A stretch of 64,000 nt of DNA from Synergistaceae bacterium (GCA_030533085.1 JAUNJZ010000001.1:24814-88813), one strand, 5' to 3'; positions 19,273 through 59,612 are shown, numbered from the stretch's first letter. Notes: generated from the sequence alone by a model not told the origin. Translations and numbers: made by a program.

Positions 19273-19478
19273 TATTCACACTCCTGATCCTTCATTCGCC
19301 TATAATTTTAACACCAGCCGCGAAATTTTTATATCGGCGCTTCGCTTTTGCCGCGGAGTCAATAATAAGCCGCCGCCGCTTTTCGCGCTTCCGTTAAAAG
19401 ATAGGGGGCGCTTTGCCGGAAATTAAGATATAATCAGTAGCTGAAACGGCAATGCCGGCGAACGATGGAGGTACTGTT

Positions 19479-23767: not shown

Positions 23768-23895
23768 CTGAAAATTAATTCATTCTGGAGCTTTGCTCTG
23801 TGGTTTTTGACGAATCAGATAATTTGGGCAGTCGGACTGTATGTGGTCTCAGAGCAACGGAGACAGGAAGGCTGTTCTGCGGAGGAGAGTTTATC

Positions 23896-25896
23896 ATGAG
23901 CTGTTCTGAGAAGGCGCGCCAGAAGGGGATACTTGGAATAGACGCGGGCGGAACATTTACAGACCTCGTTTTCTGGGGGGAGGAAGATTCGCGCGTCCTG
24001 GCCTCGGCAAAGACTCCGACAATACAGGGAGATCTCGTCGGAACGATAGAAAGGGGGCTTGACCTTATTCTTAAAAAGGCGGCCCCGGAACAGATAAAAA
24101 CTTTTAACCTCGCTACGACGCTGGCGACGAATGCAATCGTTGAAAACAAGCTTCGTCCCTGCGCCCTGATGCTGATCGGTTATGACAATGAGATGGCCTC
24201 CAGATTTATCAAAGGCGGGGCAGTGAATGCCGATTATATTTACCTTGTCGGCGGCGGTCATGACACGAGAGGCGGCGAGCGCGAGCCTCTCGACGAAGCG
24301 GCCTGTCGAAATGCCTGCAAAGAGGCTTTTGCCCATACAGATACAATAGCCATATCCTCTTATTTTTCGGTGAGAAATCCCTCTCATGAACTGCGCGCCC
24401 GCGATATAGCAGAGAGCGAGCGCCCTGGGGTATTCGTGAGCTGCGGTCATGAGCTGGCTGCCGAGCTGGACGCCGTGAAAAGAGCTACGACGGCGGCGCT
24501 GAACGCAGGGCTGATTCCAATAATCATCGACCTGTTAGATTCCGTGGAGGAGGTCTGTCGAAAGCGCGGCATCAACGTGCCGATCATGATTGTGCGCGGC
24601 GACGGTTCTTTGGTCAGTATGGAATGGGCGCGCACTCATCCGGTAGAGACGGTGCTTTCAGGGCCGGCCGCCAGCGCCATCGGCGCCTGCCGCCTTGCCG
24701 GAGCGGAGAATTTTTCCAGAGGTTCCTGCGTCGTGGATATCGGCGGAACAACCACCGATATCATCTATCTCAATGAAAAGGGGCGTCCCCTCCTTGGCAG
24801 GGATGGGACCACCGTCGGCGGTCATAAAACTCTTGTGAAGTCTATAGATACATTTACCTTCGGCCTTGGGGGAGACAGCAGGATATCATTCTCAGAGGAG
24901 CGCGAGCTTGTCATCGGCCCGCGCAGGGTAAGCTCCCTCTGTTCAGCCGCCGCGGAGCTGCCGGCGGTGACGAAATGTCTGAAGGATATTATCGCCTTCG
25001 GCGGCGCGCGTGAGCCGCTTATAGTATTTCGCGGCGAGAGGGGAAGGCCGGAGGGAAGCTTTGAAGAGCGCGTAATCTCTTTGCTTGAAGGCGGCCCCTC
25101 CGCGGCTGACCGGCTGTTGGAGAATGAGCGCTTCTCCAACAGAGGGCTGCTTCAGCTTGAGGATATGGAGCGGCGCGGGCTGCTGCGCTTTGCCGCTTTT
25201 ACGCCTACCGACGCTTTGACCGCTCTCGGCAGGCTTGATAAATGGCCTGCCGAGGCCTCCGCGCTCGGAGCTGAAATACTGGCAGGCTCAAAGGAGGGGG
25301 CAGCCGCCCTCTGCGCGGAGGTGTGCGAAAGAGTGAGCCGGATTGCCGCTAAAAATATATTCAAGAAAAGGTCATCCTCTCAGGGATTTGATTTTGACAG
25401 GGAGGCCGGTGCTGAGGCGCTCATTGATTTTATCCTCGCTCAGCACGGCGGCGCTGCGCATGCTGCGCGGTTGAAGCTGAACAACGAGATAATCGGGGTC
25501 GGCGCTCCGTCGTGGGCTTTTATTCCGAGGGTGGGAGAGCTGCTTTCCGAGACTGCGCTTCATCCGGCGGGGGCGGAGGTGGCCGGCGCGGTCGGAGCGG
25601 CTGTAGGCGCCTTTTTTATGAGCTACGCGATTCTTATCACCCCGCTTGCGGCCGGCGGCTATCGCGCGCACCTGCCGAACGGCGTAAAAGATTTTGAGCT
25701 TCTGGACGAAGCCGTCGATGACGCTGCAGCGGAGGCCGTACCATGGATAAAAGAGCGCGCCGCCAGCTCCGGCGCGAAGAATCCGATTGTCAGCTATCGG
25801 AGGGAAGATACGGAGGCCGAGATCGCCGGAGGGGCCATGCTGTATCTGTCAACGCATATATATTTCGACGTTTCCGAAGGGCTTGAGATAGCGTGA
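23896..25896 (+). CDS. hydantoinase/oxoprolinase A-family (ASKHA-fold ATPase) protein. No HyuB partner is present.
   Basis: The N-terminus GILGIDAGGTFTDLVFW is typical of Hydant_A_N, and VVDIGGTTTDI lies in the second actin-like lobe. GGAGGAG RBS before ATG 23896. Confidence 0.75.
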   Translation: MSCSEKARQKGILGIDAGGTFTDLVFWGEEDSRVLASAKTPTIQGDLVGTIERGLDLILKKAAPEQIKTFNLATTLATNAIVENKLRPCALMLIGYDNEMASRFIKGGAVNADYIYLVGGGHDTRGGEREPLDEAACRNACKEAFAHTDTIAISSYFSVRNPSHELRARDIAESERPGVFVSCGHELAAELDAVKRATTAALNAGLIPIIIDLLDSVEEVCRKRGINVPIMIVRGDGSLVSMEWARTHPVETVLSGPAASAIGACRLAGAENFSRGSCVVDIGGTTTDIIYLNEKGRPLLGRDGTTVGGHKTLVKSIDTFTFGLGGDSRISFSEERELVIGPRRVSSLCSAAAELPAVTKCLKDIIAFGGAREPLIVFRGERGRPEGSFEERVISLLEGGPSAADRLLENERFSNRGLLQLEDMERRGLLRFAAFTPTDALTALGRLDKWPAEASALGAEILAGSKEGAAALCAEVCERVSRIAAKNIFKKRSSSQGFDFDREAGAEALIDFILAQHGGAAHAARLKLNNEIIGVGAPSWAFIPRVGELLSETALHPAGAEVAGAVGAAVGAFFMSYAILITPLAAGGYRAHLPNGVKDFELLDEAVDDAAAEAVPWIKERAASSGAKNPIVSYRREDTEAEIAGGAMLYLSTHIYFDVSEGLEIA

Positions 25897-25911
25897 ATGG
25901 GGGGCTAAGAA

Positions 25912-26625
25912 ATGGCGCTTATGAAATTCGACGGGGTAAGCTTTGACTGGCAGGCACTGCTTGACAATTCACGGAAAGGCGGCCGGCGGAGAAAAATCTC
26001 AGATGATATGGCCGGCGCGGCCAGGCGCGCTTATGATGAAGGGGTAAAGGTTCTTGAGATGCGCGCGGTAATGGAAATATACAAAAAAGAGGCGGATGAC
26101 GACGAGGGGATAACTCTTTCTCTCCCGGATGGGGCTTCGGAGAGGATCTATATCGGCCCGAGAGTCGGCTATCTGTTCCCCGCCCATGAGACGGCCGTGC
26201 TTCTGTGCAGCGTCGGAGAGCCGCTTGTAACGCTCATGCGCGATTACGCCGCCGCTGGAGATCATCTGATGATGTATTATCTCGACGTGCTTGGGGTGAG
26301 GGCGCTCGCGGAGGTTTCTGCCAGAATGCGCGCGCATGTAGAGTCAGCGGCAAAGGAAAAGGGCTGGGGCGTCGGCCCTTCGATGCAGCCCGGCTCTGTG
26401 GAGGGGTGGGGGGTGCAGGGACAGCGCGACCTCTATCGCCTTGCGCACGGCGAAAGGATAGGGCTGGCTCTCAACGAAGCCTCTTTCCTCATTCCGCATA
26501 TTTCAGACTCCGCCATAATCGGAATGGGGCCGCATTATTCCGAGAGCAGGGTCGGCTCTATGTGTCACGAATGTCACAGAAGAGATAAATGCCTCTGGCG
26601 GCGCGAAAACGTCAAAGAAGCTTAA
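25912..26625 (+). CDS. methionine-synthase (MetH) activation-domain-like protein with C-terminal Cys cluster
   Basis: GDHLMMYYLDVLGVRALAEV...GWGVGPSMQPGSVEGWGVQGQRDLYRL...IGLALNEASFLIPHISDSAIIGMG follows the Met_synt_B12 pattern (D..G..., SPG, W..Q..LF, IG..L.ES, P.KS). The tail is CHECHRRDKC. Starts 16 nt after the hydantoinase-like gene. Confidence 0.55.
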   Translation: MALMKFDGVSFDWQALLDNSRKGGRRRKISDDMAGAARRAYDEGVKVLEMRAVMEIYKKEADDDEGITLSLPDGASERIYIGPRVGYLFPAHETAVLLCSVGEPLVTLMRDYAAAGDHLMMYYLDVLGVRALAEVSARMRAHVESAAKEKGWGVGPSMQPGSVEGWGVQGQRDLYRLAHGERIGLALNEASFLIPHISDSAIIGMGPHYSESRVGSMCHECHRRDKCLWRRENVKEA

Positions 26626-26691: not shown

Positions 26692-27459
26692 TCAGCCGCG
26701 GCGTCTCTGTCTGACTGCCTCCGCGTCGCCTGGCGTCATTATGTGACAGCCGCCGAGCTGGTAGTAGAGGCATTTTCTGCCTGTGCAGGGCTTGCATGGT
26801 TCCATTTTAATCTCCGTCTCATATTCCGACGAGCCAAGGAGGATAAGAGAACACTGCGATTTTCGCGGGTGGAGCAGCGAGCTTCCGCTTGCCCTCACGC
26901 CAATCAGCCGTTCCGTATCTCCGAGCGAGACGACCTTTTCTATTAGATCCTGCCTCATGCTTCCCGTGCCGGGGTAAAATTCGCCGTTGATATACTTACC
27001 CATCGCGCGCGCGGGGCCGCTTTTCAGCCACTCGGTCATCCTCCGGTGCATGTTGTAGAGCGAGATAGAGCCGGCCACGTCAAGCAGCAGCCCGGTCATC
27101 ATATCATTCAGCGACGAGGTCATTTCTGTACATTTTGCCTCAAGCGCAGGGCCGATTGTCCACACCGCCATCGCCGCCGTTTCAACTGATTTGTTGCTCC
27201 GCGGCAGCTCCGCTCCGAAGTTCTCGGCGGCAACCGAGAAGGGCATGGTCATAACGCGCGCCGTCGGAGAGAGCAGCTTTTCATAGCCTTCGCTCTGCCA
27301 GTATTTCATGAATATCTCAAAGTTTTCCCTGTGCCTTGCTCCAAGTGATTCGTAGTGGCCGCTCAGCGCCGATAGGTCAACGCTCATCGGGGCCTCCTCG
27401 CAGCGTGCCGCCCCATCGCTTGCCCCATATTCAGAGAAGATTATATTGATGCTTTTCAT
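26692..27459 (-). CDS. second MetH activation-domain-like protein with C-terminal Cys cluster
   Basis: LLLDVAGSISLYNMHRRM...YPGTGSMRQDLIEKVVSL...IGVRASGSSLLHPRKSQCSLILLG shows the same pattern. The tail is CKPCTGRKCLYYQLGGC. ATG 27459 has a GGGGGAG RBS and lies 20 nt after the RACo stop. Confidence 0.5.
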   Translation of the reverse strand: MKSINIIFSEYGASDGAARCEEAPMSVDLSALSGHYESLGARHRENFEIFMKYWQSEGYEKLLSPTARVMTMPFSVAAENFGAELPRSNKSVETAAMAVWTIGPALEAKCTEMTSSLNDMMTGLLLDVAGSISLYNMHRRMTEWLKSGPARAMGKYINGEFYPGTGSMRQDLIEKVVSLGDTERLIGVRASGSSLLHPRKSQCSLILLGSSEYETEIKMEPCKPCTGRKCLYYQLGGCHIMTPGDAEAVRQRRRG

Positions 27460-27479
27460 TCTGCCCACTCCCCCTTGGC

Positions 27480-29093
27480 TCAAAGGGCCATCGCCGAAAC
27501 AAATCTCTCTTGAAAATCCGGCAGAGATGACAGCTCGATATATCTCATCTTCTCCGCCGTCCTTTTCGTCCTCTCGTAGAAGTCGGCGGAGGCAAGGGCG
27601 AGAGAGGCGCCAAGTCCTGAAGAATTTTTGACGCTGCGTATCTTATTCCGGTCAATATCCGGTATCAGCCCTATAGCGGCGGCGCTCTCCATATTGATGT
27701 TGTTGCCGAAAGCTCCGGCAAGGCAGACTTCCGACAGTTCGTCCGCGCTTATCCCGGCCTCTTCAAGCATCACTCCGATGCCGACCTTGACCGCTCCGGC
27801 GGCCAGCTGTACTTCGCGGATATCTTTCTGCGTGAGGTAGACGGGATTGTCCCCGTCTGTCAGTAGAAGTTGGGTCATGCCTTTGTCGTTTCGCCCCAGC
27901 CTCTCCCTGAAACGCGGATCCGCGCAACTCTCCGGCTTTATAAATCTGCCGCCGGAGTTTATGAGCCCTTCGCGGAGCGCGAGAGCGACCGCGTCTATCA
28001 GCCCGGAACCGCAGAGGCCAATGGGCTTTGCTCCACCGATAGTGGAATATCTCAATTCGCCCTCTTCAATAAAGAGCCTGTCTATCGCGCCTGTACTGGC
28101 GCGCATCCCGTATTGTATCCTCGCCCCCTCGAAGGCCGGTCCCGCCGCCGTGGCGCAGCAGTAAAGCCCCTTCGCGCCGCCGATCACTATTTCATTGTTG
28201 GTGCCGATATCTACCAGCATTTTTATCCCCTCTGTCTCGTCGATTCCCAGCGCGGCCACTCCCGCTGCGATGTCCGCTCCGACGTAGCCCGCGACGTTGG
28301 GGAGCAGCTTTATAAGGCCATTTTTCGCTATGTTGATGCCTGCCTCCGACGCGCGGAAGGGCGGAAGGCTGAGAAACTGCGGCCTGTAGGGGCTGCGGCC
28401 GATGCTTTCAGGAGAGACGCCGGCGAAGATATGCTCCATCACTGTATTGCCGGCCACGGTTATCTCGCTTATCTTTTCCTTTTCTATACCCTCGCGCTCC
28501 GCAAGCAGCCCTATTTTCTCGTCCATCTCATCCGAGAGCGTTCGCCGTATTTTTTCAAGAGCCTCTGCGGCAGAGGAGGCGTATGCGATACGCGAGATGA
28601 CGTCGTCTCCGAAGACCACCTGCGGGTTGAGAAATGAGATTCGGCCGGCCTCGCGGCGGGAATCAAGGTCAAGGAGGTAGCAGACGACGGTGGTTGTGCC
28701 TATATCTACAGATACGCCGTAACCCTCCGCGCATGGCGCCCAGCCCGCTATTGATTCGGAAAATCCTTCGAGTATGCTGTGTCCGGCTGATTCCACTCCG
28801 TCTATGACTGTTACTTCACCGTCCCGTTCCACAGCGGCGCAGCAGGAGAGGCGGATCCCGTCGTTTCTATCCTGATTGCTGAGAATCTTTCGCTCTGTTT
28901 CATTCAGCGCAGAGAGCGGATCCTTCCCTCTTTCGGTTCGGACTCTGCATTTGCCGCAGACGCCCGCGCCGCCGCAATGGCGTCCGATGGCGACATTGAC
29001 GGAAGCCGCCGCGTCGGAGAGAAGCGTTCCCCTGGGCACGACGGCGGTTACCCCGACGGGGAGGAAAATGACGACGCACTTTTCGTTCTCCAT
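27480..29093 (-). CDS. corrinoid reductive activase (RACo/RamA-like): 2Fe-2S ferredoxin domain + ASKHA ATPase (DUF4445-type)
   Basis: N-terminal plant-type ferredoxin GRHCGGAGVCGKCRV...RLSCC, then actin-like ATPase motifs VSVDIGTTTV and LVDIGTNNEI. Probable start is Met19 (29093). Confidence 0.8.
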   Translation of the reverse strand: MENEKCVVIFLPVGVTAVVPRGTLLSDAAASVNVAIGRHCGGAGVCGKCRVRTERGKDPLSALNETERKILSNQDRNDGIRLSCCAAVERDGEVTVIDGVESAGHSILEGFSESIAGWAPCAEGYGVSVDIGTTTVVCYLLDLDSRREAGRISFLNPQVVFGDDVISRIAYASSAAEALEKIRRTLSDEMDEKIGLLAEREGIEKEKISEITVAGNTVMEHIFAGVSPESIGRSPYRPQFLSLPPFRASEAGINIAKNGLIKLLPNVAGYVGADIAAGVAALGIDETEGIKMLVDIGTNNEIVIGGAKGLYCCATAAGPAFEGARIQYGMRASTGAIDRLFIEEGELRYSTIGGAKPIGLCGSGLIDAVALALREGLINSGGRFIKPESCADPRFRERLGRNDKGMTQLLLTDGDNPVYLTQKDIREVQLAAGAVKVGIGVMLEEAGISADELSEVCLAGAFGNNINMESAAAIGLIPDIDRNKIRSVKNSSGLGASLALASADFYERTKRTAEKMRYIELSSLPDFQERFVSAMAL

Positions 29094-29309
29094 TATTGAC
29101 CGCTCCTTTATTTCACTCTGCCTAACAATCATATTTTCCCAGATCAACGCGCATCAGGCAAGAATTTTTCCCGCCGCTTGCGCGCGCAGTCCATAGCCGC
29201 ACATAATAGAATACCAGCCCGCCGCGAGCAGCTCACGGCAGGCTGGTCAGACAAAGAAGAATAGAGAGAGAGTGAATATCGGCTCCGGCTCCTGCCGCCC
29301 TGCCGAGGA

Positions 29310-30346
29310 GCCGCGTTATTTCCCCCGCTCGTTGTAGAATTCGTCTGCCGCTTCAAAGAAGGCCGTGATGTTCTCCCAGGGCGACATGGCGGGGATGTCG
29401 CAGCCGGAGGAGATGACGAAGTTCGGATACTGGCAGCATTCGCCCATGATTCTCTTTGTTTCGGCCTTCATCGTCTCCGGCGTACCGCTGTAGAAATAGT
29501 CGGAGGGGCTGACATTGCCCATCACCAGCTTGTCTTTCGGCATCAGTTCGAGCATCTCCCTCAGACTTATCGAGTTGCCGAAGTGGAAGGCGGCAGAGCC
29601 GGTGCGCGCTATCGATTCAGTCATCTTAATCGCGCTCCCGCCGCAGTTGTGATAGATCACTATGAAGTTATCGTCCTGCACAGCTTCCACTATCTCGCGC
29701 ACATAGCTCTCGGAGAATTTCACCGCCAGACGCGGAGAGAGAAGCCCGGTAAGCGGCTCCGCCATCACTATGCCGTTCGCGCCGACAGCCTTATAGGCCT
29801 TCGCGTACTCCACAAGGAAATCTGTTGACTTCCTGAGCACGGCCTTCATCATATCGGGCTTTTCTATGCAGTTTACAAGAGCCTCCGCTACGCCGACGAG
29901 ACGTCCGGCGAGCGAGAAGGGGCCTATTACTCCCGCGAATACAGGCCTGTCGGTGATCAGCTCGCAGGCTTTGCCGAGAGCTTCGATATATCTGCCTGTG
30001 CGCGCGGTTCCTACCGGGGGCACAGCCAGAGCCTCTGCCTCCTCGATACTGTTTACGACGGAGCCTACCACAGTGGGCACGTCCTCATCGGAGATATGTA
30101 CCGTAGAGCCGAAAGCCTCAGCTTCAACGGAGAGATCCATCATGCTTACCGATGCCAGGGAATCTATCTTGTCCGCGACCATCTTCATTCCCTTTGCCTG
30201 CAAGCCGCTGTCGCTTATCAGCTCGCGCACGGTTATCCCCATCAGAGTGACGCAGGGGAATGAGAGCACGGGCATCGCCTTTTTGCGCGGAGCGGCCTTG
30301 ATCTCTTCGAGCCAATTGTTCATGTTCATTGGTAACACCTTTCCTT
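29310..30346. repeat. copy A of a 1,037-bp direct repeat (partner at 40313..41349)
   Basis: Co-linear with copy B at a constant offset of 11,003 bp. I saw only about five substitutions. Both-strand ORF translations are identical over hundreds of residues. The repeat spans the stop flank, the CDS and the RBS only. Confidence 0.9.
29316..30329 (-). CDS. uroporphyrinogen-decarboxylase-family methylcobamide methyltransferase (MtaA/MtbA-like MT2), copy 1
   Basis: URO-D-like fold. The candidate Zn site is IVIYHNCGG (H-x-C-G) plus ISSGCDIP. Likely start is MNMNNW (30329), with a GGAAAGG RBS shared by copy 2. Confidence 0.75.
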   Translation of the reverse strand: MNMNNWLEEIKAAPRKKAMPVLSFPCVTLMGITVRELISDSGLQAKGMKMVADKIDSLASVSMMDLSVEAEAFGSTVHISDEDVPTVVGSVVNSIEEAEALAVPPVGTARTGRYIEALGKACELITDRPVFAGVIGPFSLAGRLVGVAEALVNCIEKPDMMKAVLRKSTDFLVEYAKAYKAVGANGIVMAEPLTGLLSPRLAVKFSESYVREIVEAVQDDNFIVIYHNCGGSAIKMTESIARTGSAAFHFGNSISLREMLELMPKDKLVMGNVSPSDYFYSGTPETMKAETKRIMGECCQYPNFVISSGCDIPAMSPWENITAFFEAADEFYNERGK

Positions 30347-30482
30347 TGTTTAAAATATCTTTCATTTGCCCCGTATCACTTTATTAACTGAGAAAAAGCC
30401 TTAAAGGATATAGGACTGATCCTTAATCTAGCTCTTATCTAATTAGACTAGCACTGTCAAATCGATACAGTTTCAGCCATTT

Positions 30483-32879
30483 CTATCCACAGCTGGCGCA
30501 GCTGCCTTCGCGCTGCACCGTGCGCGCGATTATGTCGTCCTGCACTTCCTTGCCAAGCTCTACGAAGAAGGCCGTGTAGCCCGCCACGCGCACGAGCAGG
30601 TTGCGGTATTCTTCCGGGTGCGCCTGCGCCTCAAGAAGCTTTTTCTGATCCACTACGTTGAATTGCACATGGTAGACGCCGAGCGAGCAGAGGGTGCGCA
30701 GCATCGCCATTATCTGGCGTATGCCGTTTTCGCTGTTTGCCATTTGCGGGTCGAGCTTCATGTTGAGCAATGTACCCTGTACGAAGCGGTCGTGCGGAAT
30801 GTTGGCGACTGATTTCAGCACTGCCGTGGGGCCGTTGACGTCTGTCCCGCCGTTTGGGCTGACTCCGTCGGCAAGGGGCTTGCCCGCGCGCCTTCCCGAG
30901 GGCAGAGCGCCGACTTCTACGCCGAAGGGGGTGTTGCCGGAGACCGGCAGGATGCCGGGGGTCATTACTCCGAATTTGCTGCGGTAGCTTTCTATTTCGT
31001 CGGCGATGTAGGCGAAGAGTTCCGCCGCGAGGCTGTCCGCGTATTGGTCGTCGTTGCCGTATTTGGGGGCTTCTTTGCAGGCTTTGAGGATTTCAGGCGC
31101 GTCCTCGAAGTCGGAGGCGAGGGCCGCGAGCAGCTGTTTCATGCTGACGCTTTTTGTGTCGTAGACGAGATGTTTGACTGCGGCTACGCTGTTGATGAGG
31201 TCTGATACGCCGATGCAGATGATCCCGTTGCCGGTGTTGTATTTAGCGCCGCCCCAGGCGTAGTCTTTCGCGTTTTCGATGCATTCCTCAAAGCTGACGG
31301 AGAGGGCGGGGACGGGGCGTCCCATGCATATTTCGTCTATTATGTGGCTGGCTTTGACGACTACTTTGATGACGTAGCGGAGCTGAGCTTTGACTGCGTT
31401 CAGGAAGTCGCCGAATGTCGCGAAGCTGGCGGGGTCGCCTGTCTGCGCTCCGGCAAGCGCGCCGGTTTTGCGGCATTTGCCGTTCAGCAGCACGAATTCC
31501 ATTACGCTGCCGAGGTTTATGTCTGCAAGGGCGGAGTAGGCGCGCAGTTTGCCGGCAAGGTTGGTCTCGACGCAGCCTCCGGGGTTCCAGTCAAGCGCTT
31601 CGCGCAGAGGGATGCCTTTGTTCATCAGCATACGTATGCCCACTTCGTCGTTATGGAAGGCGGGGAAGCCCGTGCCCATTACCATAAGCTCTACTATTTT
31701 GCGCAGGAAGGAGTTTGGATTTTTCGCCATGTTGTAGCGCACCGAGAGCGATGGCTGGTAGAGCTGTGTGTCCATTGTGGCCTGTATTATCATGTAGGAG
31801 AGGTCGTTTACCGCGTCGCGTCCCATTTTGTCCACGCCGCCGGCGCAGAGGTTCTGGAACATCGGGTAGCCGGAGGCATATTCTGCGGATTTGGCGTCCT
31901 GAAAGAGGCACTGTTCGGAGAATTTTACCCAGAGGCAGTCAAAGAGCTCCTGCGCCTCTTCGGGGGTGATGCGTCCGGCTTCCAGGTCGGCCTTGTAGTA
32001 GGGATAGAGATACTGGTCCATGCGTCCGGGGTTGTAGGCGGCGGCGTTTTGTTCCATGAAGATGCTTATCTGGTAGAAGTAGAAGGACTGCATGGCTTCG
32101 CGGAAGCTGCGCGCGGGATATGCCGGAACGCGGCGGCAGACTTGCGCTATCTCAAGCAGCTCCGCTTTGCGGCGCGGCTCTTGCTCCTTTGCGGCAAGAC
32201 GCTCCGCCTCGATGGCGTAACGTTCGGCCAGAGTCTCCAGCCCTTCGCAGACTGTCAGAAGCGCGTCGAGATAGACTTCCTTTTCGTAATCTCCGGGAAC
32301 TGTGGCGTCAAGCTTTGCCTTACGCTCAAGAATTCTCTTGCGCAGCCCCTCGACGCCGTTATTTATGAACCACTCGTAGCCGGCCGTGACCTCGCCCCAG
32401 CCGCGCACTGCCTTCTTGTCGATATAAAGCGCGCCGTTGTCGCGCAGAGCGGCCACATCCGCAGGTATACGCGCGAGCCATTCTTCGTAATTTGAGCGCC
32501 CCTTCCAGTAGGGACGGATCATCTCTTCAAAATCCTTTTTGTCCTCCGGCAGAAGCCTGAACTTGTCATATTCGCGGGTATTGATAGTATCAAGCTCGCG
32601 GTCGAGCACCGACCAGCAGACATCCGCGGAGAGTATACCGCCGCGTATCTTGCTGCCGGAATTTCCTACGATCAGCTCGTCGTCCCATATCTTAACGCTC
32701 TTTTCACGGCACTGCTTCAGAAAAGCCTTGGCCTTGCGCGTGACAAGCGCCTCCCCCTGAGTCTCAAGAAAGCTCTGCGTCAGCAGCTTCGCGTCCTCAA
32801 GGTCTATCTCCGGATATGTCTCAAAGAGCTTCGATTTCAACCTTTCCACTCGTTCCAGATATTTTGGCTGGTTTTCCAT
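30483..32879 (-). CDS. glycyl radical enzyme, PFL2/dehydratase-lyase clade, substrate unknown
   Basis: 798 aa from ATG 32879 (AAGGAGGGG RBS). The glycyl radical motif LLVRVAGYTAFFVELGKEVQDDIIART is near the C-terminus. The Cys loop is WNPGGCVETN. The N-terminal region is typical of CutC/HypD/GDH-type enzymes. Confidence 0.9.
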   Translation of the reverse strand: MENQPKYLERVERLKSKLFETYPEIDLEDAKLLTQSFLETQGEALVTRKAKAFLKQCREKSVKIWDDELIVGNSGSKIRGGILSADVCWSVLDRELDTINTREYDKFRLLPEDKKDFEEMIRPYWKGRSNYEEWLARIPADVAALRDNGALYIDKKAVRGWGEVTAGYEWFINNGVEGLRKRILERKAKLDATVPGDYEKEVYLDALLTVCEGLETLAERYAIEAERLAAKEQEPRRKAELLEIAQVCRRVPAYPARSFREAMQSFYFYQISIFMEQNAAAYNPGRMDQYLYPYYKADLEAGRITPEEAQELFDCLWVKFSEQCLFQDAKSAEYASGYPMFQNLCAGGVDKMGRDAVNDLSYMIIQATMDTQLYQPSLSVRYNMAKNPNSFLRKIVELMVMGTGFPAFHNDEVGIRMLMNKGIPLREALDWNPGGCVETNLAGKLRAYSALADINLGSVMEFVLLNGKCRKTGALAGAQTGDPASFATFGDFLNAVKAQLRYVIKVVVKASHIIDEICMGRPVPALSVSFEECIENAKDYAWGGAKYNTGNGIICIGVSDLINSVAAVKHLVYDTKSVSMKQLLAALASDFEDAPEILKACKEAPKYGNDDQYADSLAAELFAYIADEIESYRSKFGVMTPGILPVSGNTPFGVEVGALPSGRRAGKPLADGVSPNGGTDVNGPTAVLKSVANIPHDRFVQGTLLNMKLDPQMANSENGIRQIMAMLRTLCSLGVYHVQFNVVDQKKLLEAQAHPEEYRNLLVRVAGYTAFFVELGKEVQDDIIARTVQREGSCASCG

Positions 32880-32971
32880 TGTATGCCCCTCCTTTGTAAA
32901 CTGGTTTTGTACCAGAACACGGCGTTTTGCCGTAGAAATCATTTAATCGCAATATCACATAAGATATACAA

Positions 32972-34276
32972 TTACATATTACCTATGACATAGTTTGGAA
33001 GCCATAGCGCCAGCTCTGGAAAGTACGTAACGGCCATTAGCGTAGGGATCCAGGCAAAGAATAAAAATTTCAGTGTGGTCGGGAGCATCTCGGCTACTTT
33101 TACTTTCATCACTCCAGCGCCAAAATAAAGACATGGCGCAGTTGGCGGAGAAAGCAGGCCTATACCGATATTCACGCCGATAATCGCCGCAAAATGTATG
33201 GGGTCAACGCCAAATTCCTGCAAGATCGGGATAAATATCGGCGAGCATAGCAAAATAGCGCTGGTATCGTCCATAATCATACCTATTATCAATAATATTA
33301 TATTCGTTCCCAACAGTATGATATATTTGTTATCTGACAGGTTTTTGAGTGCGCTGGTAATCATTCCAGGCAGATCTTCCATTATGTATATGCGGCTCAA
33401 CATCATGATACAAAAAATCATCACCATGATTACGCCTGTACTTGCCGCTGTTTCTATTAACGTTTCATAGAGGTTTTTAAAAGTAAGCTTTTTATATACG
33501 AAAAAACCTACAGGTATCGTATAAATAACAGCGACAGCCGCAGCTTCGGTAGGTGTGAAAAAGCCGCTGTATATACCACCAAGGACAATGAACGGCATGG
33601 TCAGCGCTGGAACAGCAGACACTGTTCTGTTCTTCGCCATTTCCAGGAACTCAGAATAGCTCATCTTTTCCCTGCTTTTAATATTCTTGTCGTTTCTAAG
33701 AATAAAGTAGCTGGTAACAGAAAGCAGAAACACCAGCAAAAGGCCAGGTCCTACTGTGGCAAGGAAGCATGCCAACAACGACTGCCGTCCCGCCCATGAA
33801 TACAACACCATGTGCGCGCTGGGCGGTATCAATAGCCCAAGCGGAGCCGCACAAGTGACAAGAGCTGCGGCAAAGCCTTTGTCGTATCCGGCCTCCTCAA
33901 ATCTCGGTTTCATGATCGAACCGATACAAGACAAGGTTGCCAGACTGCTGCCGGCAATAGAACCAAACGCGGCGCTGGCAACCACCGCAACTACTGCAAG
34001 GCCGCATTTTATTCTACCCACAAAGATATCAACAAACTCGACAAGAGTTTTTCCAATACCGCTTTGGTTCATTAATGAACCTACCGCGATAAAGAGCGGT
34101 ACGCAAAGCAAGACGAGAGAATTTACAACTCCATAGCCATATGTCAGCAGAAAACTTGTCTTGTATCCCAAAGTAACAACCAGAAACAACGCCGCGGCCA
34201 AAAATGCGTACTGTATATACATCCCAAGCAACAGGCCGGCGATTATCATCAATATAGCAATAAATATGAATGTCAT
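32972..34276 (-). CDS. TRAP transporter large permease (DctM family)
   Basis: 434-aa polytopic membrane protein, directly downstream of the DctQ-like and DctP-like genes. Confidence 0.85.
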   Translation of the reverse strand: MTFIFIAILMIIAGLLLGMYIQYAFLAAALFLVVTLGYKTSFLLTYGYGVVNSLVLLCVPLFIAVGSLMNQSGIGKTLVEFVDIFVGRIKCGLAVVAVVASAAFGSIAGSSLATLSCIGSIMKPRFEEAGYDKGFAAALVTCAAPLGLLIPPSAHMVLYSWAGRQSLLACFLATVGPGLLLVFLLSVTSYFILRNDKNIKSREKMSYSEFLEMAKNRTVSAVPALTMPFIVLGGIYSGFFTPTEAAAVAVIYTIPVGFFVYKKLTFKNLYETLIETAASTGVIMVMIFCIMMLSRIYIMEDLPGMITSALKNLSDNKYIILLGTNIILLIIGMIMDDTSAILLCSPIFIPILQEFGVDPIHFAAIIGVNIGIGLLSPPTAPCLYFGAGVMKVKVAEMLPTTLKFLFFAWIPTLMAVTYFPELALWLPNYVIGNM

Positions 34277-34282
34277 CTGCCG

Positions 34283-34813
34283 TTATCCTTTCCTTGTCAG
34301 TGCAACCAGATGGTTGTAATCTCTAATCGTATAAACGGTTAGATAGAGGGCCGTTATTACGAAAGACAACAAAATCGCAGTCTGAGGAATGAAATATGGA
34401 ATATTCCACAATGATGTTACCGTCCATGTTTCTATTGACCTTGCCACCATATTATATGCCAGTACGACAAAAATAAAGTTTATGGAAGTTTGCAGTATCC
34501 CTGCTGCAAGCTTTGCCACAGCCAACAGCTTTTCCCCCATCATCGTCGCCAGGATATCCGCCTTAATATGTTCTTCCTTACTCATTGCATATGCCGCACC
34601 AATGAAATACATCCAGAAAGAATCAACAAGCACTATCTCGTCATATCCGTATAGATCCGCGTGAAGTACATATCTCGCCAGCACAACCGCTCCCAGTATG
34701 ACCAGCATCAAAACTGTAGTGAGGAACATGATGAATCTCTGTACCTTAAGTAAAGACTTCCAAATTTCAGAGTCCATGATGCTGTTTATAAATTGTATCT
34801 CTCTCACTTTCAA
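34283..34813 (-). CDS. TRAP transporter small permease (DctQ family)
   Basis: 176 aa with four hydrophobic segments. Lies between the DctP and DctM homologs. Start uncertain. Confidence 0.75.
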   Translation of the reverse strand: MKVREIQFINSIMDSEIWKSLLKVQRFIMFLTTVLMLVILGAVVLARYVLHADLYGYDEIVLVDSFWMYFIGAAYAMSKEEHIKADILATMMGEKLLAVAKLAAGILQTSINFIFVVLAYNMVARSIETWTVTSLWNIPYFIPQTAILLSFVITALYLTVYTIRDYNHLVALTRKG

Positions 34814-34893
34814 TTCACTCCCTTCGCTTTTTTACATAAGGGCATGCCATACAAGCATGCCCTTATGTATCAACGTAATTGTGCTTACAGTTT

Positions 34894-35922
34894 TTACTTT
34901 CCCGGTTTCGTAGCCGCGACCTGTTTGTCAAGAGCTTCAAGGAATTCTTTTCCAAACACGTCGTTGTATTTCGGCCATATCTTTTTACGAAGCTCACTAT
35001 GTAGTTTATAATAATCGTCGTCGGTATATTCGTTAATCTCTATGCCATAATCCTTAAGCAGCCTTGTAAACTCCACTTCTTTTTCTTCCATCAGGGTAAG
35101 AGTTTTCTGCGCCCAGCTTTTGAAAACATCGGAAACAATCTGCTGTTCCTCTGGAGAGAACGAGGCCCAAAGCTCCTCATTACAGATTATCCACGTAGGT
35201 GGGCAGTGAAATCTATTGTAGTCGATATATTTTATGATATCCTTGCCGACAAGCCATGACGTTTCAAGCGTTTGTCCGGTAGCGCCGTCCACCTGACCTG
35301 TCTGCATCGCGTTCCAAACCTCTGACAGATCCATTGTCAGCGTCTGATATCCCATCGCAACAGTGCTGTCTCTGTAGAGTGGCATTCCTGGAACACGGAG
35401 GCTCAGCTTTTTATTTTCAAAACCACTGAAGGATTCAGGGCGTTTTCCTTTCGCGAAAACAAAGCAAGCGTACGGTTCCGGCCAACCGCCGATACTTTTG
35501 ACCTTTATATCTTTTAAGACTTCGTCCATCTTTTTTGCAATCAGCGAGTCTTCTGCAAAACAGATCTCCGCATACTGTTTATACCCCATAGGAGCGTATG
35601 CCGGAAGATTGAGCAAGTCCAAACGAGGGTCATATTTCTTTGTGGGCCATGTCGCGCCGAACTCAATAGTACCCTGTCTGACTTCTTCAATCACATCTTC
35701 GTAACTTCCAAGCTGGCCGCCAGGAAAAATTTTTATCGAGATTTTGCCGTCTGTCTCATTTTTTATCTGCTCTGCGGCAGAAACCAATCCCTGTGTAATA
35801 TAACTTTCAGCAACGTACGGAGCATACATCTTCAACGTTCTAGCTTCAGCAACCCCGCTAGCAACAAACAGACCAAATAACGCACAAATAGATATTATTT
35901 TTACAAAACTTTGCTTTTTCAT
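34894..35922 (-). CDS. TRAP transporter substrate-binding protein (DctP family)
   Basis: 342 aa. Signal peptide MKKQSFVKIISICALFGLFVASGVAEA, with a DctP-like periplasmic-binding-protein body. Confidence 0.8.
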   Translation of the reverse strand: MKKQSFVKIISICALFGLFVASGVAEARTLKMYAPYVAESYITQGLVSAAEQIKNETDGKISIKIFPGGQLGSYEDVIEEVRQGTIEFGATWPTKKYDPRLDLLNLPAYAPMGYKQYAEICFAEDSLIAKKMDEVLKDIKVKSIGGWPEPYACFVFAKGKRPESFSGFENKKLSLRVPGMPLYRDSTVAMGYQTLTMDLSEVWNAMQTGQVDGATGQTLETSWLVGKDIIKYIDYNRFHCPPTWIICNEELWASFSPEEQQIVSDVFKSWAQKTLTLMEEKEVEFTRLLKDYGIEINEYTDDDYYKLHSELRKKIWPKYNDVFGKEFLEALDKQVAATKPGK

Positions 35923-36072
35923 AATACACTCCCCCTATTCAGAAATAACCAGCACACAAAAACCGACGAAATCATACTAATACGCACATACCACACAAAA
36001 AGGAGCAAATTAATTAAATTTAAGGGAAAACTGACTTTTTTGCTTCCGACAAGACCGCACACGTCGTGCCGG

Positions 36073-36714
36073 TTACGCAACCCTTAAAAGTCTTTTCGCA
36101 GCTTCAACTGCTGAGCTCGCGTCCTCCGAATAAACCGCGCCTATTTTTTCGGCATACATGGGCGAAGTAGGCGCTCCTCCAATCATTACCTTTGTTGAAT
36201 CACTGAGTCCTTCCTCTTTGAGTACGTCGATTACCTCCTTCATTTTTGCCATCGTTGTGGTAAGCATTGCCGACATCCCCAATATGTCAGGTGAATACTC
36301 TTTCACCTTTTCAGCAATCTGGGCAGCCTGAACATCAATGCCTATGTTAATAACCTCAAAACCCGCGCCTTCCAGCATCATCCCCACAAGCTTTATGCCG
36401 ATGTCATGCAGATCGCCCTCGACAGTTACCGTTAGGATTCTGCCTTTTCTCTCAACTCCTTCCTCTACCAGTAGATTGCGGATGACGTCGATGCCGCCCT
36501 GCAACGCTTTCGCAGACACTAGAACCTCCGGGACAAACATTTCCCCATCCTTGAAAAGCTCTCCAACTTCATTCATCCCAACGATCAAGCCGTCATTAAG
36601 AATTTTCCCCGCGGATACGCCTCCCTCCACAGCTTCCTGAACATATGCAGTTGTCTGTTTCACATTGCCCTCTAGAACCGCTTCAGCAATATTCCTAAGT
36701 ATTTCTTCACTCAT
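36073..36714 (-). CDS. corrinoid (cobalamin-binding) protein 1, MtbC/MttC/MtgC-like
   Basis: B12-binding DxHxxG motif in TVEGDLHDIGIKLVGMMLEGAGFEVINIG, plus SAMLTTTM and MIGGAP. Confidence 0.9.
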   Translation of the reverse strand: MSEEILRNIAEAVLEGNVKQTTAYVQEAVEGGVSAGKILNDGLIVGMNEVGELFKDGEMFVPEVLVSAKALQGGIDVIRNLLVEEGVERKGRILTVTVEGDLHDIGIKLVGMMLEGAGFEVINIGIDVQAAQIAEKVKEYSPDILGMSAMLTTTMAKMKEVIDVLKEEGLSDSTKVMIGGAPTSPMYAEKIGAVYSEDASSAVEAAKRLLRVA

Positions 36715-36746
36715 TTTCCAGTCTCTCCTTTTAATTTACTATATGG

Positions 36747-38270
36747 CTAGTTTCTTATTATCTTTTCCATCGCTGATTCCGCATCAACGGGAACGTCAAT
36801 CGGTTTATATTTGGCCATCAGCTTATTTTTCTTAGCGATTGCGTTGTTAATCACATTCGTATCCAGATGTTTCTTTTCGCCTTTGACTGCGGAGCAATCA
36901 AAGATCGTACGGGTCCACAACTCTTTTCTAAAATGTGTGAGCGTATGGTCCGTACTGATAAAATCACCGCGCGGTCCCACTCTGTTGATGAGGTCAAAGC
37001 CTTCGGAAGACATATCGACAGTGATTCCGTCTTTTATCCTTTTAACATAATTTGCGACTTCCGAAGCGAGGATAAGAGTTTCGGCGCTGACGGCGTTCAT
37101 CCCTGCCAGAAGCCCCATCCCCTGAGCCATATTTATTCCGCTGAGAGCCGGTAAAAGGCTTGTTGCACACTGTTCTGCCCCGAGCTGATGATCCAGGGCT
37201 AAAGAGTCAGAGAGATTAGAGCCGCCGCCAGTCGGAAGGTTGTAGTGTTTCCCCATTTGCGTAGTCGCAATACGAAGCATACTAAACTCCGGCCCTCCGA
37301 CGCTGACATTTCCGTTTTTCATATTAATCACTCGCGCCCAGCTGGCGTAAATTACAGGTGCGGAAGACTTTACAAGCTTTGCCAGAACGATACTGCTTAA
37401 AAGTTCAGCGTTTGCTATTGCAACGGTTTCAGCAAGGGTTACTGGAGATGTTGCCCCGGCCATCGGCCCCGACTCGACAAAGAGCGGGATTCCATATCTT
37501 GCCGATTCAATAATAAGCTGCATAGAATCGCTGCGGTGATGGAGCGGACTTGTCAGTGTAACAAGAAATGAAAAAAACGGTGTTTTTTTAAGATTTTCCT
37601 CTCCGCCGGCGATATATTCCGCCATCTTTATTATCTTTCGCGCGTTGACAAGATCCTTGGCCTGGGCTTCGATATGCTTCGACGTATAAAGCATGCCGGC
37701 TTTGAATTCATATAAATCAGCGTATTCAGGCTCAACGTCTGTTGCTCCTACGCTGGGCAGGATATAATCAGGCGGATCGAGGATATCGCAGAGTTTCATG
37801 ACATCAATAACATCCTTGCTTGTAGACTGACGGTATTCACCGCTTTCGAAATCAAGATAGTTTGTGGCGAATCCTGTAGTTCCAAAATACAGGTTGTCAC
37901 CGCCTACATGGAGACTCCGGCGACCGCAGCGCCCATGAAGCTCCACCACTGGAATAGAGGCTTCTATTGCCTCATTGATAATTTTTTCTGTAAGAAAAAC
38001 TCTTGTTTTTCCATCAATTCTTGCTCCGGCATCTGCAAAGATTGAAATAGCCTCTTCATCCTCGCAAATAAAACCAACCTTTTCCAGAACATCCCGCGAT
38101 AATCTGTCAATATACCGGATCTCTTCGTTGCTCAAAATCTTAATGTCAGGCTTCAACGATACCAGCTCCTTATGTAAGTAATGTTGCAATGAAAAATTTG
38201 TATTATATATAGCCTTGCAATGAAACGTTTTCTTTATTCTATCAAAACTTTTATCCTTGTCAATATGCAT
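36747..38270 (-). CDS. MttB-superfamily methyltransferase 1 (no in-frame amber codon, so non-pyrrolysine)
   Basis: 507-aa uninterrupted ORF. The N-terminal pattern LSNEEIRYIDRLSRDVLEKVGF and overall length are typical of trimethylamine-methyltransferase-family proteins. Adjacent to a corrinoid protein. Confidence 0.85.
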   Translation of the reverse strand: MHIDKDKSFDRIKKTFHCKAIYNTNFSLQHYLHKELVSLKPDIKILSNEEIRYIDRLSRDVLEKVGFICEDEEAISIFADAGARIDGKTRVFLTEKIINEAIEASIPVVELHGRCGRRSLHVGGDNLYFGTTGFATNYLDFESGEYRQSTSKDVIDVMKLCDILDPPDYILPSVGATDVEPEYADLYEFKAGMLYTSKHIEAQAKDLVNARKIIKMAEYIAGGEENLKKTPFFSFLVTLTSPLHHRSDSMQLIIESARYGIPLFVESGPMAGATSPVTLAETVAIANAELLSSIVLAKLVKSSAPVIYASWARVINMKNGNVSVGGPEFSMLRIATTQMGKHYNLPTGGGSNLSDSLALDHQLGAEQCATSLLPALSGINMAQGMGLLAGMNAVSAETLILASEVANYVKRIKDGITVDMSSEGFDLINRVGPRGDFISTDHTLTHFRKELWTRTIFDCSAVKGEKKHLDTNVINNAIAKKNKLMAKYKPIDVPVDAESAMEKIIRN

Positions 38271-38666: not shown

Positions 38667-39542
38667 TCAATCAAGTTTTAAAGTAAAATCATAGTCTTTA
38701 AACTCAAACATATCAGATGAAACAATCAATGATTCATATTTTTTTAACCGCTGTTTGATATTTGTTTTGTCTTTTTTATACATCTCGATGAGCATTGCAT
38801 GTACCAAAGTAAGAGCAGACGAGGCCGGCTCGACAAATAATATATATTTTAGCGGCGTTATCAGATTCTGAGATGCATATTTCAATATTGGAGAAGCATG
38901 ACTGTCCGTTACGGCCAAAATAGGTATATTTAAATTATATAATGTCTCTGCTATCTTCAGAACTTCTTTAGGATATCTGGGATAACTGAATACTACCGCT
39001 ACAGTTTTATTGCTCAACAACTCCAGTTTTCCATAAAATCTCATATTCCTTTGATGAACGACACTGACTTTCTCCTTAAAAAAGCTAAGATAATCAGCAA
39101 AGTATTCTGTAATGTAATGTTGCGTCGGTCCGCCAACTAAAACTATATTATCCGCTTCCATCAACGTTTCAACAAACCTGTCAAAATCGGCGGGATCGAT
39201 TGACGCCAAAGACTCATCCAATAGATTTTTTTCTAACATGAATATGTCCTGATATGTAGGGAAATCAGAGCCACACGGCACAATCTGCCTGAACGGATCA
39301 TATTGGTTTGGTTTTTGCACCTGTTTTCTAAGATCCAACTGGAAATCAGAAAAACTATTATAGCCAATCGCATAAACAAAGCGGGTTAGCGTTGCTTCGC
39401 TCACACCTACGTTTTTAGCAATCTTGGAGGCATTCATCAAAGCGACATCATATATATGTTCGCATATATATTCTCCAATAGCGACCTGTTTGTTTGTGAG
39501 ATTGGGCGTTGCCTGCATAATTTTTTCGTTGATTGTTGCCAT
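38667..39542 (-). CDS. MurR/RpiR-family transcriptional regulator (HTH_6 + SIS domain)
   Basis: N-terminal HTH: LTNKQVAIGEYICEHIYDVALMNASKIAKNVGVSEATLTRFVYAIGYNSFSDFQ. C-terminal SIS-like region: NIVLVGGPTQH. Confidence 0.85.
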   Translation of the reverse strand: MATINEKIMQATPNLTNKQVAIGEYICEHIYDVALMNASKIAKNVGVSEATLTRFVYAIGYNSFSDFQLDLRKQVQKPNQYDPFRQIVPCGSDFPTYQDIFMLEKNLLDESLASIDPADFDRFVETLMEADNIVLVGGPTQHYITEYFADYLSFFKEKVSVVHQRNMRFYGKLELLSNKTVAVVFSYPRYPKEVLKIAETLYNLNIPILAVTDSHASPILKYASQNLITPLKYILFVEPASSALTLVHAMLIEMYKKDKTNIKQRLKKYESLIVSSDMFEFKDYDFTLKLD

Positions 39543-40242
39543 AAGAATCCCCTCACTGTAGACGCTGAAATCAGTTCTGGATTCAGGCTGGTATTTCCCG
39601 GCCCGATCCGCCTCACATAATTAACCAGACAGTCTGTATATTAAATCAACATCAGCAAAACCGCCAATGTTTTATCCAGGTTTCTCCTGCATAAAAATAT
39701 GCGCTGAACGGGTATATACAACAAGCCGCTCCGCGCATATACAAATCCATGCTTACGAAGATAGACCGTCGCCCCATGCCCATCGCATTAGCTAACTGCC
39801 GCGTTTTCGCGAGGTCTTCTGGCTTTTGGCCGTTCCCTGGCGTCTGCCTTCCCATCATGAGTCATAAACGACAGTGGCTGATGCGACCCAGCGTGCAGAA
39901 TATCTACCATATTCCACATGACCAATTACAGTAGCGAGGCTGCTTCGGACTTTCACCGATATTGTCTCACTTCAAAAACGCTAACTAAACAAAGACAAAA
40001 AACATCTCTGTCTTAAATTACGGTATCACATTTCTATAAAAAACGCAATATAGGAAATATTATTAACAGATTTACAATTTAAATGCAGCATGGCGTGCCT
40101 TTTCTCCGCACGCTGTTCTTTCGATCTGCATATTATTTGGGTGAAAGCACTGATATACAGTTGCTTCACTGTTTATCTCCGTAAATGGCAATCAACACTG
40201 CCGCCGCTCTGAATCACGATACAGACTGTGCTTTTGCAACAA

Positions 40243-40279
40243 CCATAGAGAACCGCAATCTTTGAACGGTTCTCTATGG
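40243..40279 (-). terminator. hairpin downstream of MT2 copy 2
   Basis: Perfect 13-bp inverted repeat CCATAGAGAACCG-(11 nt)-CGGTTCTCTATGG, about 40 nt after the stop at 40319. On the minus strand it is followed by TTGTTG. Confidence 0.5.
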
Positions 40280-40312
40280 CAAATGCCAACTTTACTCTGT
40301 CAAATTGCCAGC

Positions 40313-41349: not shown

Positions 41350-41477
41350 ATATTGGATTTGAATTGTAAATTTACTCTGTTTTCGTGCCGTTGCTACGGG
41401 AATGATAGCATAATGAAATAATCTTTTCAAGATATTCTTTTTATGAAAATTATGCAATCATAACCTTGAAATCTGTT

Positions 41478-43004: not shown

Positions 43005-43050
43005 CCCCCAAACACCCCTCCTAAATAAATTTTGTTAAAATACTGCGAAC

Positions 43051-43103
43051 GAAAAAATCACGGGCGGCATTTCCCGCGCCCATCATGGAATGCCGCCGCC
43101 CGT
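43051..43103 (-). terminator. strong intra-operon hairpin with T-run between MttB-2 and the BCCT gene (terminator or attenuator)
   Basis: On the minus strand: ACGGGCGGCGGCATTC-(13 nt)-GGAAATGCCGCCCGT, followed by GATTTTTTCG. Confidence 0.55.
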
Positions 43104-43116
43104 AAAGCTTCAGCTC

Positions 43117-44613: not shown

Positions 44614-44672
44614 AATATTCCCTCCCGCTCGTAACAATCAAAAATCCATCTCCACAGCCGCGAAGCGAAAAG

Positions 44673-59591: not shown

Positions 59592-59612
59592 CTTCTTTTC
59601 CTCCTTTTATAT

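Follow-up and report, generated by a model that had tools for sequence, protein, structure and literature searches.

Gene content and layout of the locus

The locus described here is a string of nine genes in a gut-type genome, a Synergistaceae metagenome-assembled genome (MAG; organism name from NCBI), of which a 64-kb window, meaning the whole stretch of DNA that was analysed, was studied. The string joins an MttB/corrinoid methyltransferase system, a tripartite ATP-independent periplasmic (TRAP) importer and a glycyl radical enzyme (GRE). Analysis of the open reading frames (ORFs) of the window placed all nine genes on the minus strand, and the ORF calls and domain assignments bore out the gene order proposed in a first-pass annotation made from the sequence alone. 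The internal gaps given there (32, 150, 80, 6, 92, 153, 222 and 20 nt) are exact with the start codons chosen in that annotation, with one start being open to revision. The first gene, MttB-1, encodes a non-pyrrolysine methyltransferase (MT1) of the MttB family (PF06253; 36747-38156, minus strand), and its ORF can be extended to 38270, where its start had been set; a TTG at 38156 preceded by the ribosome-binding site (RBS) AAGGAG is more likely, as it yields a protein of 469 aa, matching homologues of 469-473 aa. The start at 38270 is further disfavoured because it would bury a strong promoter-like site (38263-38236) inside the gene.

Downstream of MttB-1 on the same strand are the corrinoid protein CoP-1 (36073-36714), which has B12-binding_2 and B12-binding domains and the cobalamin-binding motif GDLHDIG (DxHxxG), and the genes for the importer: the solute-binding protein DctP (34894-35922; PF03480), which bears an LRVP arginine motif as well as a signal peptide, the small membrane subunit DctQ (34283-34813; PF04290) and the large membrane subunit DctM (32972-34276; PF06808). 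The GRE follows (30483-32879; 798 aa), its ATG at 32879 preceded by AAGGAGG; it has PFL-like and Gly_radical domains with Cys436, Glu438 and Gly767. Next come MT2a, a methylcorrinoid methyltransferase of the MtaA/URO-D family that resembles MtqA (29316-30329; 337 aa), with its ATG at 30329 preceded by GGAAAGGTG; a corrinoid reductive activase of the RACo/RamQ type (27480-29147, starting at 29147 or 29093) with Fer2 (2Fe-2S), RACo_middle and RACo_C (ASKHA) domains; and a protein resembling the MetH activation domain (26692-27483), which carries a C-terminal CxxCx4C motif and whose ORF overlaps the RACo stop codon.

Several features of the locus went beyond the first-pass annotation, namely a break in base composition at the junction of DctM and the GRE, an RpiR-family regulator and a cobalamin riboswitch upstream of the string, a repeat comprising the MT2 gene, a second MttB module, and the lack of any GRE activase in the 64 kb.

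The glycyl radical enzyme

The GRE matched PF02901 (6e-196) and PF01228 (5e-31) in Pfam, and its best match in the Protein Data Bank (PDB) was 8ID1, an HpyG (1173 bits), followed by 8IOF, an HpzG (878 bits); CutC, diol and glycerol dehydratases, HypD and IslA all scored 639 bits or less in the same search. It aligned to 8ID1 end to end with zero gaps at 63.8% identity, compared with 49.8% for 8IOF. In a tree that included 61 orthologues, the window GRE and 8ID1 fell together in a 60-sequence clade defined by their most recent common ancestor, with 8IOF outside, and of the 86 positions at which HpyG-clade sequences are told apart from HpzG, the window GRE agrees with 8ID1 at 85. The protein was far under the cut-off of each of the NCBIfam equivalogs for CutC, HypD and HpsG. 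Both catalytic motifs are present: the CxE motif of the Cys loop, as GCVE at 435-438, and the glycyl radical motif (RVxG[FWY]), as RVAGY at 764-768. HpyG is an N-methyl-hydroxyproline dehydratase from a family that was reported in 2024 (Jiang et al., ACS Catal 2024, as cited in PMC13450708, which also gives the names and substrates of HpyG and HpzG and places Cys435/Glu437 on the CxE loop of both). By alignment, tree and motifs, the window GRE is thus assigned to the HpyG clade and not to a novel radical chemistry, and the specificity of 8ID1 is likely to be shared at 64% identity.

This identity bears on the proposal of the first-pass annotation that the string encodes an undescribed anaerobic route, since the half of the route that concerns the radical enzyme belongs to an already described family. 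That annotation had considered its idea endangered if the GRE fell into a known clade with a substrate unrelated to methylated amines and if the gene adjacency were unique to the strain. The clade is indeed a known one and the adjacency is indeed unique among the genomes sampled (see below), but the substrate of the HpyG clade is itself a methylated amine.

No activase for the GRE was found in the 64-kb window by tblastn with both activase types, so the enzyme must be activated in trans; we infer that the activase is supplied by a canonical GRE cassette on another contig of the same MAG. While the window enzyme shares with 8ID1 the gap-free alignment, the clade that excludes HpzG, the CxE loop and the glycyl radical motif, it differs in having no adjacent activase, pyrroline-5-carboxylate (P5C) reductase, epimerase or dedicated regulator, in being enclosed by TRAP genes on one side and a corrinoid MT2 on the other, and in being a duplicate of the genome's canonical copy.

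In nearly every HpyG locus of Synergistaceae, another GRE that has an activase of its own, here called GRE790 for its 790 aa, stands ahead of HpyG, in the order AE253-GRE790-HpyG-AE313. GRE790 loci include L001 (7600-9972), L004 (7615-9987), L005-L019, L022, L040, L055 and L057. GRE790 fell outside the HpyG clade in the tree and is about 30-35% identical to both 8ID1 and 8IOF; its assignment as an HpzG was ruled out, as its best PDB match is the B12-independent glycerol dehydratase 1R8W (646 bits).

Methyltransferase, corrinoid and activation proteins

MttB-1 matched PF06253 at 1.6e-79 and is encoded by an uninterrupted ORF with no in-frame amber codon; its score against TIGR02369, the model of the pyrrolysine-containing MttB, was 381 bits, below the cut-off of 525. 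The string holds a complete set of partners for it, comprising CoP-1 with its DxHxxG motif, MT2a of the MtaA/URO-D family and the three-domain RACo. The last gene, which ends at 26692, had no Pfam or PDB match on its own sequence, and a single-sequence AlphaFold model reached a pLDDT (predicted local distance difference test score) of 31, so that its label rests on a profile search instead: a profile of 51 members of its family matched the MetH activation-domain protein 1J6R of Thermotoga (E = 1e-21), and 11 of the 51 members matched PF02965. The earlier description of this gene as MetH-activation-like was upheld by these matches.

The closest characterised counterpart is the MtpB/MtcB/MtyB-MtqC-MtqA-RamQ system of Eubacterium limosum (PMC8604678), with which the locus shares a non-pyrrolysine MT1, a DxHxxG corrinoid protein, a URO-D-type MT2 and a RACo-type ATP-dependent activase, as well as the adjacency of the last two, mtqA-ramQ being paired as are MT2a and RACo here. 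The gene clusters of E. limosum are dispersed, however, whereas in the window all components stand in one string with a transporter and a downstream catabolic enzyme; systems of that type use a BCCT or ABC importer in place of the TRAP system, and the embedded GRE is a further difference. MttB-1 is also only about 30% identical to MtgB (2QNE). The HMMER pairwise alignment, which is uncertain at this identity, places F134, G348, Q383 and M391 of MttB-1 at Y97, R312, H348 and F356 of MtgB, and thus leaves MttB-1 without an equivalent of R312, a carboxylate-binding arginine reported to be conserved in all characterised MttB enzymes for acidic quaternary amines (MtgB, MtpB, MtcB, MtyB and MthB).

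A second, complete methyltransferase module of host-like GC content lies directly upstream (40319-47593, minus strand) and consists of genes for a LuxR-type response regulator, a histidine kinase, CoP-2 (44673-45374), MttB-2 (43117-44637), a BCCT transporter (41478-43004) and MT2b. The part from CoP-2 to the transporter occupies 41478-45374, and the module closes with MT2b and a 15-bp hairpin (40242-40280). MttB-2 is 25.5% identical to MttB-1 and likewise has no equivalent of MtgB R312. In another locus (L090, 10001-18240), a relative of MttB-1 with 54% identity shares its cluster with genes for a corrinoid protein, a betaine ABC importer of the OpuA type and two short-chain dehydrogenases, a context that hints that the wider MttB-1 clade acts on hydroxylated betaines.

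The TRAP importer

All three components of a DctP-type TRAP importer are present, DctP with its signal peptide, DctQ and DctM. The nearest PDB relatives of DctP scored 70 bits or less and are too distant to point to a ligand. DctP and DctM are 77% and 91% identical to their counterparts in a Synergistes jonesii cassette (L084) in which MttB-1 is present and HpyG is not; in a further locus (L020) a TRAP system with a DctM 83% and a DctP 57% identical to the window proteins stands beside HpyG without an MttB. The occurrence of one TRAP lineage beside HpyG in one genome and beside MttB-1 in another suggests that the ligands are related.

Mosaic origin of the string

The string differs sharply in base composition along its length. 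The G+C content of third codon positions (GC3) is 0.37-0.49 in RpiR, MttB-1 (0.46), CoP-1, DctP, DctQ and DctM, compared with 0.69 ± 0.04 (minimum 0.58) in the other 38 genes of the window, and it returns abruptly to host-like values at the junction of DctM and the GRE (0.73 in the GRE and 0.72 in MT2a, with RACo and the last gene likewise resembling the host). DNA homology to the cassette ends at the stop codon of DctM (32973), and the DNA homology of Cloacibacillus HpyG is confined to the GRE ORF (32881-30484); no remnant of GRE790 or of an activase was found beside the window GRE in this comparison of DNA homology. The RpiR-family regulator at the head of the cassette (38667-39542, minus strand) has HTH_6 and SIS domains and a GC-rich hairpin 3' of the gene, and DctM is the last gene of the cassette. 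No tRNA gene was detected in the 64-kb window, and the borders of the island showed no inverted repeats in the repeat searches.

Two of the host-like genes are duplicates. The MT2 gene lies in a direct repeat of 1,037 nt whose copies (29310-30346 and 40313-41349) are 99.5% identical, with five mismatches that cause two amino-acid changes; each copy spans the RBS, the MT2 ORF and 6 nt past the stop codon, and the upstream copy, 11,003 nt away, holds MT2b (40319-41332), the final gene of the CoP-2/MttB-2/BCCT module. The GRE protein is represented by two accessions in the same MAG, MDO5114508.1 in the window, five numbers from MttB-1 (MDO5114513.1), and MDO5115572.1 on another contig. The neighbour of the latter, MDO5115571.1, is a GRE790-type enzyme, the protein that precedes HpyG in all related Synergistaceae; the second copy and its canonical setting were recognised from consecutive NCBI accessions. 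The window GRE is thus a duplicate, with an identical protein sequence, of the HpyG of the canonical cassette.

Judged by composition and repeats, then, RpiR-MttB-1-CoP-1-DctPQM is a horizontally acquired low-GC cassette that stands directly ahead of recent duplicates of the host genes HpyG and MT2, and the string as a whole is best described as a recent mosaic in which a resident RACo and MetH-activation-like gene lie behind the duplicates.

An independent k-mer assembly from Logan (contig L088, run SRR24915808) is 100% identical to the window from 40359 to 32811, a span that runs from the 3' end of MT2b through the riboswitch, RpiR, MttB-1, CoP-1, DctPQM and the 92-nt gap into the first 69 nt of the GRE, and it thereby confirms the junctions MT2b-riboswitch-RpiR and DctM-92 nt-GRE. 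The contig stops 47 nt into the MT2 repeat, at the last 31-mer that holds the copy-specific single-nucleotide polymorphism at 40329, and 69 nt into the GRE; if the contigs were built with k = 31, the latter stop would mean that the two GRE copies differ at 32841, the third base of codon 13, which fits the identity of the two proteins. These stops indicate that both duplicated genes are repeats in the read graph and that the linear order is one of several consistent paths. Every such path keeps HpyG directly after DctM and HpyG directly before MT2.

Conservation of the adjacency

The neighbourhood of HpyG was surveyed in 73 loci from other species (about 840 kb of flanks, on a scale of about 10 kb). 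None of these 73 loci contained an MttB, a corrinoid protein, an MtaA-type MT2 or a RACo, and a radical-SAM activase lay within 900 nt of the GRE in 56 of the 57 with enough downstream sequence. DctM was found in the flank of 11 loci, and the arrangements included TRAP-GntR-P5C reductase-HpyG-activase in Clostridium fessum (L051), epimerase-TRAP-HpyG-activase (L035), and an ABC importer with proline-racemase-family and OCD-family genes in Desulfosporosinus. The window thus has the HpyG orthologue in common with canonical loci such as that of C. fessum and the AE-GRE790-HpyG-AE loci of Synergistaceae, and a TRAP system directly upstream in common with L035, L020 and L051, but it is the reverse of them on two counts, as they have the activase (56/57) and never a corrinoid methyltransferase.

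The low-GC cassette was found in a Synergistes jonesii MAG and on other contigs (L080, L084-L087), with the six genes in a slightly different arrangement and with 64-91% protein identity; there too it is a low-GC island in a high-GC host (33-44% versus 58-65% in L086/L087). These cassettes differ from the window in that no GRE, MT2, RACo or riboswitch adjoins them and RpiR is elsewhere or otherwise oriented. Across the MttB-1-clade cassettes compared, none of six (L080, L084-L087, L089) had a GRE beside it, the sequence available being a full 10-kb flank beyond DctM in L084, a short continuation in L085 and L080, and contigs that end before DctM in L086/L087. The conservation of the MttB-TRAP-GRE adjacency, which the first-pass annotation had suggested checking in related genomes, was accordingly absent from both sets, and the adjacency is unique to this genome among those sampled.

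A Cloacibacillus-like genome (L005/L006, 18169-21808, minus strand) has a corrinoid protein gene with three URO-D-family genes around it at a distance of 6-9 kb from the HpyG cassette; the group is encoded on the other strand, with unrelated genes in between, is no MttB system and is probably unrelated to HpyG.

Transcription and regulation

A promoter-like site, TTGACA-16-TAGAAT with a TG element (38236-38263, minus strand; 11 of 12 matches), stands before MttB-1 and is the probable start of its transcription unit. No terminator-like structure was found in the 92-nt gap between DctM and the GRE or in the 153-nt gap between the GRE and MT2a. Strong hairpins occur 3' of both MT2 copies (29247-29213 and about 40280-40242), and the one after the MT2a stop codon (29213-29247, minus strand; 16 bp, of which 11 are G-C) probably marks the end of the unit. 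The simplest transcription unit predicted from these signals would therefore run from the promoter at 38263 through MttB-1, CoP-1, DctPQM, HpyG and MT2a to the hairpin; RACo and the MetH-like gene follow beyond this point.

The aptamer of a cobalamin riboswitch (39791-40009, minus strand) scored 41.8 bits against a gathering score of 31.5 and lies about 250 nt upstream of RpiR; it is followed by a terminator-like hairpin with U5 (about 39740-39690, minus strand). The riboswitch is missing from the cassette in four other genomes. Regulation would be of an unusual design if a B12-OFF switch controlled the putative repressor of an operon that itself depends on B12.

Another cobalamin riboswitch, with the higher score of 65.3 bits (61728-61954, minus strand), is found upstream of a TonB-dependent receptor gene (59613-61616), which together with a 620-aa ORF without a Pfam match occupies 57729-61616 on the minus strand; this group is probably a B12 uptake unit. 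Genes for MeaB and a protein with a B12-binding domain are present at 62279-63868.

A possible route for hydroxyproline betaine

The reading that we favour, with a probability of roughly 0.45, is that of a composite operon, put together recently, through which a hydroxyproline-type betaine would be broken down anaerobically and whose GRE would be activated in trans. Under this scheme DctPQM would import the carboxylated N,N-dimethyl-hydroxyproline, MttB-1 would move one methyl group to Co(I)-CoP-1, and MT2a would hand it to tetrahydrofolate, mirroring the systems of E. limosum, while oxidised corrinoid would be re-reduced by RACo and possibly also by the MetH-like protein. HpyG would then dehydrate N-methyl-4-hydroxyproline to N-methyl-pyrroline-5-carboxylate, relying for its activation on the radical-SAM activase encoded with the other, canonical copy of the GRE; its duplication into the unit would bring it under the control of a betaine-responsive promoter. 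The order of demethylation and dehydration is chemically apt, since the substrate of HpyG is the product of a single demethylation of hydroxyproline betaine, so that the class of products expected of a betaine demethylase is the class of substrates of HpyG. Further findings support the reading: the cassette has no MT2 of its own in other genomes, and here the unit is extended past the GRE by a duplicate, MT2a; two gene-sized duplicates stand in the same orientation behind the cassette, the GRE copy being trimmed to its ORF; the promoter-like site, the terminator-free gaps and the hairpins give the string the anatomy of an operon; one TRAP lineage adjoins HpyG in L020 and MttB-1 in L084; and the DctM-GRE junction was assembled independently in L088. 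The more general scheme of the first-pass annotation, in which a quaternary amine is imported, demethylated and then acted on by the radical enzyme, is likewise in keeping with what the GRE turned out to be, but it loses ground in that the GRE step is already described, the adjacency is not conserved and the string is a recent mosaic without an activase.

A number of observations weigh against the favoured reading. The arginine equivalent to MtgB R312 is lacking in MttB-1, where the pairwise alignment at about 30% identity shows a glycine; the activase is missing from the window; neither the 73 HpyG loci nor the six MttB-1-clade loci reproduce the arrangement; and the string has no P5C-reductase or epimerase gene, unlike the HpyG loci L051, L029 and L035. 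An identity of 64% to 8ID1 does not prove identical specificity, and the gene order across the two repeats comes from the MAG assembly. Stereochemistry is a further difficulty, as an epimerase would be needed to reach the (2S,4S) substrate of HpyG from the isomers that are common in nature, betonicine (2S,4R) and turicine (2R,4R). The authors of the HpyG work may have tied its substrate to hydroxyproline betaine, a link for which the 73 loci hold no genomic support.

The same genes could also be juxtaposed without being metabolically coupled, the foreign cassette serving another carboxylated quaternary amine such as proline betaine and the HpyG copy being a by-product of rearrangement in a recombination-prone methyltransferase locus; this copy may be redundant, may be independently expressed, or may act on directly imported N-methyl-hydroxyproline as in other genomes. 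We regard such an uncoupled origin as doubtful on balance, yet as an explanation to be taken seriously. The signs of recent rearrangement (the GC3 break and two near-identical duplications) and the absence of the adjacency from every other sampled genome are what it would lead one to expect, HpyG elsewhere has its own transporter, activase, P5C reductase or epimerase and needs no methyltransferase, the genes grouped with the 54% relative of MttB-1 encode short-chain dehydrogenases and an ABC importer of the OpuA type and not GREs, and a promoter-like site in the 3' end of the GRE gene (30556-30529) could drive MT2a separately. Random rearrangement would not, however, predict that duplicates of HpyG and then MT2 should follow an MT2-less cassette in the same orientation with short, terminator-free gaps, nor would it account for the match between the HpyG substrate and the products of betaine demethylases or for the related TRAP lineage that adjoins HpyG in L020.

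It is also conceivable, though improbable in our view, that the arrangement reflects an ambiguity of assembly or binning, given that the GRE (2.4 kb) and MT2 (1 kb) are both repeats and the order of the contig is one path of several. The island with HpyG and MT2 could then form a circular or tandem unit of 11,003 bp, the spacing of the repeat copies, apart from a BCCT-MT2-RACo chromosome; the true orders could be TRAP-HpyG-activase and GRE790-HpyG-MT2a-RACo; or two strains could share one bin. Breaks of L088 inside both MT2 and the GRE are expected of repeats, and the identical GRE protein does occur under two accessions on two contigs of the MAG. Against this, the copies appear to be distinct and real, as those of MT2 differ at five positions near their ends and those of the GRE apparently at 32841, and the contig extends across both repeats to a length of 156 kb, which suggests that long-range information went into the assembly. 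Moreover, the independently assembled DctM-92 nt-HpyG junction and the HpyG-153 nt-MT2 junction are kept in every alternative, so that an HpyG gene would in any case have methyltransferase genes as neighbours on both sides.

Taken singly, the components of the favoured composite-operon reading (methyltransferase system, TRAP importer and GRE family) are known, and it is their combination, and the substrate that it implies for the MttB-1 clade, that is not described in the literature searched; there we found no description of an MttB enzyme linked to hydroxyproline betaine, or of an MttB cluster with a GRE or a TRAP importer. A bolder form of this reading, which we consider unlikely as it stands, is that MttB-1 is a TRAP-fed hydroxyproline-betaine:corrinoid methyltransferase, a new specificity in the MttB superfamily, and that the locus holds the first complete anaerobic pathway for hydroxyproline betaine in one transcription unit, caught during operon formation. 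For most members of this very large superfamily the substrate is not known, and the packing of MttB-1 with an enzyme of known substrate gives its clade a specific prediction, hydroxyproline betaine. If true, the pathway would join two recent anaerobic chemistries, corrinoid-dependent betaine demethylation and the glycyl radical dehydration of N-methyl-hydroxyproline, it would give gut-type anaerobes a route for abundant plant and algal osmolytes, and the cobalamin riboswitch upstream of RpiR could couple expression to the supply of B12. The locus would also be a clear case of operon assembly by horizontal transfer and local duplication; should the reading not be confirmed, it would be a rearranged locus in one MAG.

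Other genes in the window

Convergent with the end of the string is a pair of plus-strand genes (23800-26625), comprising a hydantoinase-A/oxoprolinase-like gene (698 aa) with no Hydantoinase_B partner and a 237-aa ORF without a Pfam match; it is conceivable that this pair handles a cyclic proline derivative. Genes for component B of a glycine/sarcosine/betaine reductase (PF09338 and GRDB, PF07355; 10095-12444, plus strand), with a PucR-type regulator at 8724-10016, represent another function related to N-methyl amino acids nearby. The window also encodes a bacterial serpin of 523 aa (19452-21023, plus strand; PF00079, 4e-113) that is extended at its N terminus by about 150 residues.

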